From a virus, in the IMG/VR virus record IMGVR_UViG_3300009085_000022, positions 1-64,000 of that record: DNA of 64,000 nt, one strand, 5' to 3'. The notes beneath the pieces were generated by a model, which did not search any database, was not told where the DNA came from, and saw nothing but the letters and a program-made list of their open reading frames with translations. This document shows, piece by piece, positions 39,529 through 59,958 of this stretch. A program made the position numbers and the translations under genes. Within the stretch, counting starts at the first letter, position 1; every line of letters begins with the position of its first letter.

Positions 39529-39544
39529 ACTTAATATTTATTAG

Positions 39545-39616
39545 CTGTCCCTCAAGGATTCGAACCTCAACTCTCAGGTTCAAAACCTGATATGCTGACC
39601 ATTACATAAAGGGACA
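39545..39616 (-). tRNA. tRNA-Gln(UUG)
   Basis: Cloverleaf; anticodon arm TCAGG-TTTTGAA-CCTGA; GGTTCGAATCC; no encoded CCA. Confidence 0.9.
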
Positions 39617-39619
39617 ATA

Positions 39620-39784
39620 AAGTAATTGTTGGAAAGAATAGTTTAGCGCGCAACAGCTATCTTTCTCTGATTATTTCTATCCGCAATCAGTAAAAGGAGA
39701 CTCACCCATCCTTGATATTATCTTACCAGTCATCTACAGAGAAAAATGTCTCTTGTAGGGGAGTATTTGCTACAACAATTACTT
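39620..39784 (-). ncRNA. Candidate structured ncRNA (~165 nt)
   Basis: Perfect 12-bp closing helix AAGTAATTGTTG/CAACAATTACTT enclosing four hairpins; fills the whole Cys-Gln tRNA spacer. Strand inferred from the neighbours. Confidence 0.55.
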
Positions 39785-39786
39785 AG

Positions 39787-39858
39787 AGCCTCCGACTGGG
39801 CTCGAACCAGTACACACGGTTTTGCAGACCGCTACCTTAGCCATTTGGTTACAGAGGC
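39787..39858 (-). tRNA. tRNA-Cys(GCA)
   Basis: GCGGT-CTGCAAA-ACCGT arm; GGTTCGAGCC; U73 discriminator. Confidence 0.9.
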
Positions 39859-39865
39859 GTATATA

Positions 39866-40450
39866 CTAAGGTATATATAAGTTAGTTGGATTATCTTTAT
39901 GAATTTCAATATCTGGATATTTTGTATGAAAAGTCTGGACATTAAAAGGATGTGTAATCAAATGATTACCAGATTTTGATGGTAAAATAGCTACTAATTT
40001 ATCATAGTTTCCTATTGGTTCGCAGTCAATATTAATAAACGCCATCATTATTGGAGATACTTGTTTATTATCTATATCTAAAATCCAATAGGCGTTTTTT
40101 TCATTATGTCCTTGTCCTGTAGCTTTATCATAAGATTTGTTACAAAATGCGAATTCTTTATTAGAAATAGTATTTGCAAGATTAACCATACATTTATAAG
40201 CAGTCTTTTCAAAACTACGTTTATTTAATCTAAACATAGCCCTTGCATTAAAAACGTCACATAATTTAATAATCTCATTTTCATGAGATAACAAATAATC
40301 TATAGATTTAATATAATAATTTCTTATTACATGTGAATTAGATCCAACTTCCTCATTCTCTTTTTTACGCTGTAAGATTTGTAAAAAGTAAAAATCATCT
40401 TCGCTTGTAAAATTTAGAAGAGGAATTATTCGTTTAAAGTTATTTACCAT
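39866..40450 (-). CDS. Conserved phage protein with AEP (primase-polymerase)-like motifs
   Basis: WILDID (hhhDxD), PSKSGNHLI (SxxGxH), HKD. Confidence 0.5.
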   Translation of the reverse strand: MVNNFKRIIPLLNFTSEDDFYFLQILQRKKENEEVGSNSHVIRNYYIKSIDYLLSHENEIIKLCDVFNARAMFRLNKRSFEKTAYKCMVNLANTISNKEFAFCNKSYDKATGQGHNEKNAYWILDIDNKQVSPIMMAFINIDCEPIGNYDKLVAILPSKSGNHLITHPFNVQTFHTKYPDIEIHKDNPTNLYIP

Positions 40451-40547: not shown

Positions 40548-40621
40548 TAGAGACAGGAGGATTTGAACCTCCTACCTCCCGGATATCAGCCGGGTGCTCT
40601 AGCCAATTGAGCTATGTCTCT
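40548..40621 (-). tRNA. tRNA-Ile(GAU)
   Basis: CCCGG-CTGATAT-CCGGG; GGTTCAAATCC; A73. Confidence 0.9.
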
Positions 40622-40819
40622 AAAATTACCATAATCATTATCTGGGTAATTATTAATTATTTTTTTAATTTTTTGATTTCTATCTTCTATAGTTTCAGAA
40701 GGTCGTAATGGCCTATTACATAAAAGATATAATTGGTAATCTTCTTCAATATTTTGTGGATATAATCTAAAATAAGACAATCTTTTTAATAACGCCATAA
40801 TTATTAATTTTAAAAACAT
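40586..40819 (-). CDS. Hypothetical protein running into tRNA-Ile
   Basis: Fills the Asp-Ile spacer; last 12 codons overlap the tRNA. Confidence 0.45.
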   Translation of the reverse strand: MFLKLIIMALLKRLSYFRLYPQNIEEDYQLYLLCNRPLRPSETIEDRNQKIKKIINNYPDNDYGNFRDIAQLARAPG

Positions 40820-58974: not shown

Positions 58975-59958
58975 TTAATTATTTAAAAGATTGTTAATTT
59001 CTTCTACAGCTTTTAATACTCCAATTTTTTTAATTAAATCTGTAAAATCTTTGCATTCAAATTCTATAGGTATAAATCTACTAGGAATATTATACATATT
59101 AAAATAAGAATTAGCTTGTTCCATTCCTTGAGTATCATTATCAAATAATGTAATAATTTTACTAAATCTTATTTTATATTCATCTACAACAGAATCTTTA
59201 ATAAAACAAGTTTCTGATTGTATAGCTATAGAAGGAATTCTCATATTTTCATATAAAGCCATTACATCTTTTAATGATTTTGTAATGATAAGTAGTTTGC
59301 CTCTTTTAGGTAATTGAGTATAACCTGAATGTACTCCATAAGGATGATTATTACGCCATTTCTTACGTTTATTAGCAAAAGGACGATATATCTTAAAAGT
59401 TAAATTATTGTCTTTATATTCAATATATGCATATGCTATTCCAGGAGTATCAACATAGAAAGAGTTATGAAAATACCCTGATATGGGCTTTACATTATAT
59501 AAATTTAAAGTATTTAGTGATATACCAAATTCTTGCCAATATATTATATCTCGTTGTTCCCAAGGTCTAGCTACAATATCCAATTTACAAACTTCTTTAG
59601 CTTTTAAATCTATAGTTTTAGATAGTTTAGATGTTGATGTAGATGATTGTATTAAATCTCCATATATTTTTTGGATAGTCTCATGATAAGAAGACATGCC
59701 TAATAAATTCATTACAAAAATTATACAATCTCCTCTTCTACCAGCAAAATCTTTAAACAACAAACAATTATTACGCTTTGAATAAAATATATTAAAACTT
59801 GGAATTTCATCTCCTCTTCTTAATGGACTATTATATGTTTGTCCTAATTCAAAGTCTCCTATATAATACTTAAAAATCTCCTGTTCTGAGAACCTATTTA
59901 ATAATTGATCTTTAGTAATAAACTCAGTATTATATTTTGATTCATTTAGATTTACCAT
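58975..59958 (-). CDS. crAss-like DNA primase (TOPRIM)
   Basis: SPLR..D..PSF..FKDF..GDC; KIYRP..KW; ITKSLKDVM; FDND..G; KDFTD. Confidence 0.88.
   Translation of the reverse strand: MVNLNESKYNTEFITKDQLLNRFSEQEIFKYYIGDFELGQTYNSPLRRGDEIPSFNIFYSKRNNCLLFKDFAGRRGDCIIFVMNLLGMSSYHETIQKIYGDLIQSSTSTSKLSKTIDLKAKEVCKLDIVARPWEQRDIIYWQEFGISLNTLNLYNVKPISGYFHNSFYVDTPGIAYAYIEYKDNNLTFKIYRPFANKRKKWRNNHPYGVHSGYTQLPKRGKLLIITKSLKDVMALYENMRIPSIAIQSETCFIKDSVVDEYKIRFSKIITLFDNDTQGMEQANSYFNMYNIPSRFIPIEFECKDFTDLIKKIGVLKAVEEINNLLNN

Follow-up and report, generated by a model that had tools for sequence, protein, structure and literature searches.

A conserved, pseudoknotted RNA of about 160 nt lies just upstream of tRNA genes in a small set of phages

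The window analysed here comprises the first 64 kb of a complete IMG/VR phage genome of 102,176 bp with direct terminal repeats (G000), whose DNA polymerase is closest to those of the crAss-like phages cr108_1, IAS virus and crAss001, with identities of 34-39%. On its minus strand, tRNA-Cys(GCA) at 39786-39858 and tRNA-Gln(UUG) at 39544-39616, both called by ARAGORN and matched by the Rfam tRNA model with 59.7 and 56.6 bits, respectively, are separated by a gap of 169 nt, in which the RNA described here, of about 165 nt, occupies positions 39620-39784 on the same strand. It is a single copy in its genome. The closing helix of the RNA starts 1-2 nt past the discriminator of tRNA-Cys, which lies directly upstream, and ends 3 nt short of tRNA-Gln, the tail UAU (39617-39619) lying between them, distances in agreement with the 2-3 nt proposed in the initial annotation of this DNA. 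Since tRNA-Cys has no encoded CCA, 3' processing after its discriminator would set the 5' end of the RNA. Further along the cluster, the gap between tRNA-Asp and tRNA-Ile is filled by a 77-aa ORF (40586-40819, minus strand) that runs about 35 nt into tRNA-Ile and is without family match. The neighbouring ORFs showing a family match are a phosphoesterase, an endonuclease VII and a DNA polymerase, and an AEP-like protein of 194 aa (phrog_14949; 39866-40450, minus strand) was placed by its fold.

The predicted model of this 194-aa protein has a pLDDT of 91 and, over its full length, resembles in structure only AEP primases (RepB', PriS and the S-2L PrimPol), the best match being RepB' with a Z of 7.4 and an rmsd of 3.3 over 123 aligned residues, in a Z range that may reflect just a common arrangement. 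Foldseek comparison of the model with the PDB gave no significant match. The AEP-like fold agrees with the invariant DxD and SKSGxH motifs of the protein, for which 929 homologues were found, including those of Lak megaphages, Cellulophaga phage phi17:2 and the crAss-like cr116_1. The window also holds a second candidate primase, a 327-aa protein (58975-59958) with a weak, sub-threshold Toprim match.

The 194-aa ORF upstream of the RNA was used as bait and retrieved 21 related IMG/VR loci, among which only the closest (L002, 81% amino acid identity) carries the RNA, at L002:2754-2914, between tRNA-Cys and tRNA-Asp. A covariance model (R1) trained on the window and L002 sequences, combined with an IMG/VR pattern scan on the invariant loop of hairpin P4 described below, led to two further copies, the homologues scoring 194, 97 and 83 bits with this model (96.8 bits for L044:686-840 and 83.1 bits for L062:6343-6496). 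The family thus has four known members, all on IMG/VR phage contigs, that form two subgroups, one consisting of the window and L002 and the other of L044 and L062. Five IMG/VR pattern scans were run, the second giving L044 and L062 and the fourth finding the same copies again, with their other matches failing the covariance model, and the first, third and fifth giving only L002 (as L024, the same contig stretch) or known copies together with chance matches; a second pattern, on the 5' motif, and a relaxed P4 pattern re-found the same set. No true match was obtained by blastn with the window element and the L062 copy among the GenBank phages of INPHARED, while a three-block pattern gave only three chance matches in JGI metagenome contigs, and the P4 pattern a single chance match in GTDB genome contigs, within a Chryseobacterium coding region. 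Model R2, used to score about 19 candidates in each of 151 sampled Bacteroidota genomes, did not find the RNA in those searched. R1 and R2 were also run on the entire records of 26 phages linked through the AEP-like protein or the polymerase, which contained only the known four copies, and a neighbour-protein search for the L062 subgroup returned only L062 itself. The RNA is specific to a small set of crAss-like phages, with Bacteroidota as their probable hosts.

In all four copies the RNA is placed just upstream of a tRNA, at a distance of 3-8 nt, the downstream tRNAs being Gln, Asp, Gln and Gln; L044 and L062 carry it 7-8 nt upstream of tRNA-Gln(UUG) and are preceded by an ORF, not by a tRNA. 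This downstream tRNA is the sole constant neighbour, as flanking genes are not conserved between subgroups, upstream neighbours differ and even the tRNA-Gln sequences differ between carriers. The window genome and that of the L002 contig (G006) are syntenic relatives, whereas the genome of the L062 contig (G026, complete, 104.6 kb) has only about 20 proteins in common with G000, at 25-35% identity. Nevertheless, a block of 34 nt, CCUAUUUACUGUUCACGGACAGAAAUGAACAGAG, is identical in L002, L044 and L062, the window deviating from it mainly by compensatory changes in P4. Such identity despite the distance between the phages indicates either strong purifying selection or transfer between phages. 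Among the carriers, no phage protein specific to them was found.

The RNA is closed by P1, a perfect 12-bp helix in which AAGUAAUUGUUG (39773-39784, minus strand, as for all elements below) pairs with CAACAAUUACUU (39620-39631), 39784-39773 facing 39631-39620, and which joins both ends of the molecule. Across the family P1 measures 12-14 bp, with 100% of the alignment cells paired and six of the 12 pairs compensatory among the four sequences. Five hairpins (P2, P2b, P3, P4 and P5) radiate from the junction closed by P1. P2 (CUACAAGAGA/UCUCUGUAG, 39734-39758) shows two compensatory pairs between the window and L002 and differs in length by subgroup, appearing as a long U-loop hairpin in one and as a short UCCA-GNAA-UGGA in the second. 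It is followed by the mini-hairpin P2b (GAU-AAU-AUC, 39714-39722), which has the sequence GAA-UUAA-UUC in L002 and is GUC-GAAA-GAC in both L044 and L062, the window row being offset by one column at this point of alignment A3. P3 (AGGA/UCCU, 39695-39712) carries a 10-nt loop, U-GGG-UG-AGUC, and P4 (CUGAUUG/UAAUCAG, 39667-39690), preceded by the conserved linker UUUA, presents the loop CGGAYAGAAA, invariant except for its Y, on a stem with two compensatory pairs and one G.U. Finally, P5 (GAAAGAUAG/CUAUUCUUUC, 39632-39665) has two compensatory pairs at its base and an otherwise variable loop in which GCUA(A) is the sole conserved block. The single-stranded linker J1/2, AAAUACU (39762-39768), is invariant in alignments A2 and A3, and the 5' region reads G-UAGCAAAUACU in every copy. 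The closing helix and all hairpins listed in the initial annotation, CUACAAGAGA/UCUCUGUAG, AAGGA/UCCUU, CUGAUU(G)/(U)AAUCAG and GAAAGAUAG/CUAUUCUUUC, are thus present, P2b being an addition to that list.

Two short pseudoknot helices clamp the loop of P3, which pairs with the J1/2 linker in one and with the linker between P2 and P2b in the other. In the former, PKa, CCC (39759-39761) pairs with GGG (39705-39707), and two of its three pairs change on both sides between subgroups, from C-G to U-A, the second subgroup reading UCU/AGA. In the latter, PKb, GACU (39728-39731) pairs with AGUC (39699-39702), and three of four pairs change in a compensatory manner, GACU/AGUC becoming UGCA/UGCA in the second subgroup; this helix, absent from the earlier description, was proposed by RNAalifold on the four sequences. 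The long-range pairing of ACUCCCC with GGGUGAGU suggested previously therefore stands in its CCC/GGG part, which covaries, while its ACUC/GAGU part is absent from the second subgroup, where PKb is found instead. The other long-range pairing then suggested, here PK2, would be formed by UAGC (39769-39772), beside P1, and GCUA (39644-39647) in the P5 loop, which can pair with it. Both strands are present and invariant in the four copies, consistent with the proposal, although, as no pair varies, they yield no covariation signal.

Folding energies were in line with these features. The minimum free energy of the window RNA is -42.4 kcal/mol (z = -3.1), whereas 200 dinucleotide shuffles averaged -31.9 +/- 3.4 kcal/mol and never reached its stability, and the three homologues gave z values from -2.9 to -3.4; the possibility raised with the initial annotation, that the RNA folds no better than shuffled controls, is thus set aside. 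The antisense strand folds about equally well (z = -3.1), so that folding energy alone does not separate the strands. The choice of the tRNA strand rests on a U.G pair in P1 of L062 and a G.U pair in P4 of the window, each of which would turn into an A.C mismatch on the opposite strand.

Pairs were counted on the model-guided alignment A3, with four sequences and a model of 41 pairs that includes, as additions, PKb, PKa (CCC/GGG), PK2 (UAGC/GCUA), P2b and the base of P5. With the full model 98.8% of cells are paired, a value that falls to 37-44% once the 3' partners are shifted by 1-3 columns. Changes on both sides affect 17 of the 41 pairs, relative to 8.8 +/- 1.7 in shuffles, with none of 500 shuffles reaching 17, in a sample of four sequences and two subgroups that is too small for a formal test. 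PKa and PKb together contribute five compensatory pairs out of seven, each of them amounting to a single switch from subgroup to subgroup, while PK2 and P3 are invariant across all four sequences. The element is thus an RNA structure that is conserved and strand-specific and in which at least two pseudoknots covary.

Comparison with known families gave no assignment. Rfam 15 showed no match at gathering score on 39617-39785; the window, L044 and L024 (the L002 stretch) stayed unmatched even at E<=10, and the L062 homologue at gathering score. The search by Infernal against Rfam proposed along with the initial annotation therefore returns no known family and, together with covariation across four sequences, upholds its description of the element as a novel structured phage ncRNA. 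Its remark that T-loop and hammerhead core are lacking also agrees with the sequence, devoid of a UUCGA-type T-loop, and with the hammerhead models, unmatched at E<=10. RNase P-RNA-like, glmS-like and T-box-like readings, based on AGAUGACUG, GACGAGGAU and a CAA 'specifier', were discarded, the motifs having no Rfam support and not being conserved in both subgroups. Type III antitoxin RNAs are tandem repeats beside an endoribonuclease toxin gene, unlike the RNA here, which is a single copy without the tandem direct repeats of ToxI-like RNAs, and family scans of neighbouring ORFs revealed no toxin gene. The P4 loop was also considered as an antisense regulator and rejected, no conserved complementary site being found in the four phage genomes.

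Regarding its position, the RNA resembles RNA C and RNA D of phage T4, small stable RNAs made from the tRNA cluster whose roles are unknown (PMC3014915). In the T4 annotation these RNAs (species 1 and species 2, of about 120-140 nt) lie inside the tRNA cluster, on the tRNA strand and abutting tRNA, and the RNA reported here is likewise found within a phage tRNA cluster and on the strand of the tRNAs. The resemblance is positional and is not one of homology. Sequence and structure are unrelated, host phylum and phage lineage are different, T4 RNA C carries a tRNA-like T-arm, CCGGGUUCGAAUCCCGG, that has no counterpart here, and model R1, run with filters off on T4 rnaC/rnaD (L225:1909-2172), gave a best overlap of just 2.9 bits (E about 8). 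Other unexplained ornate RNAs, GOLLD and ROOL, are often found in phages and prophages near tRNA genes and are several-fold longer than 160 nt; the RNA here is similarly ornate and near phage tRNA genes, but has only about 160 nt and matches neither family in Rfam. One report describes GOLLD, ROOL and OLE as large ornate bacterial RNAs assembling into homo-oligomers (PMC12286853).

Additional RNAs were observed in the carriers and in other phages. G026 encodes a tmRNA (L062:3762-4090), which scores 82.1 bits in Rfam and for which ARAGORN gives the tag peptide DDTTIVRMYSELRLSA; the RNA homologue follows about 2.3 kb downstream of it. Two tRNA-Ser genes of L002 are separated by 79 nt (L002:4139-4217) in which a tRNA-like stretch, not called by ARAGORN, shows a T-arm, GAAGGUUCGAGAUCCUUC, and perhaps an anticodon loop with GUA. 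In the tRNA array of a related phage, two spacers of 160-190 nt (L004:5602-5762 and L004:6196-6385), not homologous to the RNA, are moderately more stable than their shuffled versions (z = -2.3 and -2.5) and may encode other passenger RNAs of no known class. Outside the window, at 68.9-71.1 kb of G000 (L037:4950-7154, minus strand), a 558-aa phrog_850 'RNA-binding protein' with DUF7788 is encoded, and its gene is followed by an array of small stem-closed RNAs whose units read stem-CAGCAAAUUAAAAA or stem-YAGCAAAUUAAAAA. One unit matches Rfam YrlA with 35.9 bits (E = 6e-5), below the gathering score of 69, and two match Dicty_Class_I_RNA with 37.3 and 29.3 bits, the gathering score being 41.5. 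In the phage G013 (L038:3140-3350 and L038:4420-4490) a homologue of the 558-aa protein, with 43% identity, is again followed by 'stem + CAGCAAA' RNAs, and a further RNA (AGAUGUGCA-a-CAGCAAAUUUUUAAAAA...UGCACAUCU) lies between two tRNA genes. These copies indicate that the scaffold family linked to phrog_850 spans distant phages and also uses tRNA arrays.

The placement of the RNA suggests how it might be made. In L002 a promoter of Bacteroidota type (TTTG ... TAnnTTTG) precedes the run tRNA-Met-Thr-Cys-RNA-Asp; it is a strong one, at L002:2400-2460 (TTTG ... TAACTTTG / TATATTTG), just upstream of tRNA-Met, and supports both a Bacteroidota host and a polycistronic transcript of tRNAs and RNA. 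A promoter directly upstream of the RNA was sought and discarded, no TAnnTTTG of the Bacteroidota type occurring within the preceding 300 nt. Having a promoter before the tRNA run and none directly before the RNA makes co-transcription plausible. The RNA would then be transcribed as part of a tRNA precursor, from which it is probably cut out by tRNA-processing enzymes. Cleavage by host RNase P at the 5' end of the downstream tRNA would generate its 3' end, whereas the 5' end would come from 3' processing of the preceding tRNA in the window and L002, and from another nuclease or a promoter in L044 and L062, where an ORF precedes. Release by tRNA processing, as envisaged in the initial annotation, appears plausible from placement, the four copies keeping their 3-8 nt distance to a tRNA whose identity differs. 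P1 would shield both ends from exonucleases and so leave a discrete, stable RNA. Production from a tRNA cluster would, by analogy, follow the logic of T4 RNA C/D.

What such an RNA might do is suggested by its unpaired nucleotides, the invariant single-stranded positions together with the P4 loop pointing to a specific pocket for binding or catalysis. The reading preferred here is that of a new family of compact pseudoknotted phage ncRNAs, of about 155-170 nt, co-transcribed with tRNAs, processed out of their precursor and perhaps acting in trans, a reading taken as a whole to have an even chance of being right. Action in trans is its weakest step, in which the RNA would offer its invariant single-stranded elements, AAAUACU, UUUA, the P4 loop CGGAYAGAAA and AG, to a host factor or a small ligand; it could, for instance, decoy a host enzyme acting on RNA or tRNA. 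Judging from its intricacy, the RNA could equally be catalytic or ligand-sensing. When the functions are ranked, a trans-acting RNA that binds a factor or ligand comes at the top, followed by a ribozyme or processing module, then, about equal, by a Y-RNA-like partner and a riboswitch-like leader, and lastly by a partner of the AEP-like protein.

A ribozyme that cleaves itself, or a module that would act in cis to free the neighbouring tRNAs or itself from the precursor, is brought to mind by a compact fold with up to three tertiary pairings, by junction and loop nucleotides as invariant as those of ribozyme cores and by a tRNA never more than a few nucleotides away. The HDV layout is a nested double pseudoknot in which P1 starts at the cleavage site and P2 closes at the 3' end, and theta ribozymes, much shorter than about 160 nt, share this HDV-type arrangement. 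These minimal HDV-like ribozymes offer the closest parallel, as they lie beside tRNAs in gut Caudoviricetes phages, about 90% of their predicted hosts are Bacteroidota and tRNA transcript processing is their proposed role (PMC10879173). The RNA here shares with them its contact with phage tRNA genes, but is of about 160 nt, which also exceeds most self-cleaving classes, has 5' and 3' ends paired together in a strand order unlike that of the HDV fold, shows no nested double pseudoknot and matches no HDV-type Rfam model at E<=10, nor any hammerhead, twister, pistol, hatchet, glmS or other ribozyme model at that threshold. Moreover, host RNase P already makes tRNA 5' ends, so that a ribozyme is not needed there, and the ribozyme or processing module is considered unlikely. 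A junction of several helices closed by P1, with pseudoknots and invariant unpaired nucleotides, is also aptamer-like and, being always upstream of a tRNA and having in every copy a U-rich stretch just past the 3' strand of P1 (U7 in L062), could belong to a cis-regulatory, riboswitch-like leader of the downstream tRNA or genes in which P1 would control read-through or processing. Rfam shows no riboswitch family match, however, neither a separate expression platform nor an alternative hairpin is evident, only 3-8 nt are left between P1 and the tRNA, and the copies in the window and L002 are preceded by tRNAs of the same operon and hence are in no 5' leader, all of which makes regulation of this kind quite improbable.

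No more credit is given to the idea that the RNA is a Y-RNA-like partner of a Ro60/Rsr-type protein, built on a scaffold of 'terminal stem + YAGCAAAU' common with the phrog_850 array of the same genome and bearing a larger cargo domain, which is likewise judged quite improbable. The RNA reads stem-UAGCAAAU in its four copies, near the stem-CAGCAAAUUAAAAA of the array, one unit of which has the YrlA match given above; G013 couples a homologous gene to similar RNAs, one of them between two tRNAs; and the control genome of Bacteroides thetaiotaomicron has a TROVE protein, so that a host Rsr is conceivable. Yet the heptamer after the stem is a weak sign, since stems of 7-9 bp beside AGCAA are frequent by chance in these AT-rich genomes, and pairing with the P5 loop accounts better for UAGC. 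YrlA has a tRNA-like domain with mimics of T- and D-arm, and GNCGAAN0-1G near its 5' end is the putative Rsr site (PMC4201824), a work that also attests phage-encoded Y RNAs. With YrlA the RNA has in common a terminal stem that joins its ends and a short conserved motif inside the 5' strand, but it has no T-arm/D-arm-like tRNA domain, no UUCGA-type T-loop, no YrlA match at E<=10 and, in none of its copies, the GNCGAAN0-1G motif. Nor is a Ro60/TROVE gene adjacent, the candidate phrog_850 gene of G000, where Pfam TROVE goes undetected, being about 30 kb away, and the complete genome G026 carries the RNA with no phrog_850 or TROVE match at all. Nearer at hand, the AEP-like neighbour, with its resemblance to RepB' and its invariant motifs, could use the RNA as template or partner, or the RNA could be retron-like, with a stem-closing inverted repeat followed by AGC and a priming G. 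Retron RNAs are closed by the flanking inverted repeats a1/a2, after which a conserved AGC follows, and P1 followed directly by UAGC resembles this arrangement, in a comparison confined to that general retron feature. On the contrary, no long msd-like hairpin is seen, and no reverse transcriptase (PF00078) was matched in the four phage records G000, G006, G025 and G026, although the same search gave matches in 4 of 14 control genomes. In addition, despite the 929 homologues of the protein, of the 21 IMG/VR records with one only that of L002 has the RNA, and G026, complete and carrying the RNA, has no homologue by tblastn; the partnership put forward initially is not supported by this poor co-occurrence, which argues that the AEP-like protein is not a dedicated partner and leaves this last alternative with hardly any probability.

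Thus, a trans-acting RNA released from tRNA transcripts is retained as the preferred reading, and a bolder one may be set beside it, with an outside chance of being true but less remote than any of the alternatives just weighed. The RNA could be the founding member of a new functional class, either a new catalytic RNA, self-cleaving or otherwise, or a high-affinity aptamer for a host molecule, expressed from tRNA operons and directed, for instance, at a defence or RNA-processing protein or at a signalling nucleotide. The invariant junction and the P4 loop would then be the active or binding pocket, and conservation across phages whose proteins have 25-35% identity would reflect selection on that pocket.

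The tRNA clusters of phages are mostly viewed just as a supply of tRNAs. In crAss-like phages, a very abundant gut group, the tRNA processing pathway would also carry an elaborately folded RNA without a described family. RNAs this rich in tertiary structure and in invariant unpaired nucleotides usually bind a specific target or catalyse. Considering that (i) much of its structure is tertiary and (ii) many of its unpaired nucleotides are invariant, the RNA is a small, well-defined candidate for biochemistry, with four natural variants and a fold supported by covariation on hand. It would also represent a second, unrelated instance of the phenomenon known from T4 RNA C/D, which suggests that carrying 'passenger' RNAs in tRNA operons may be a strategy general among phages.
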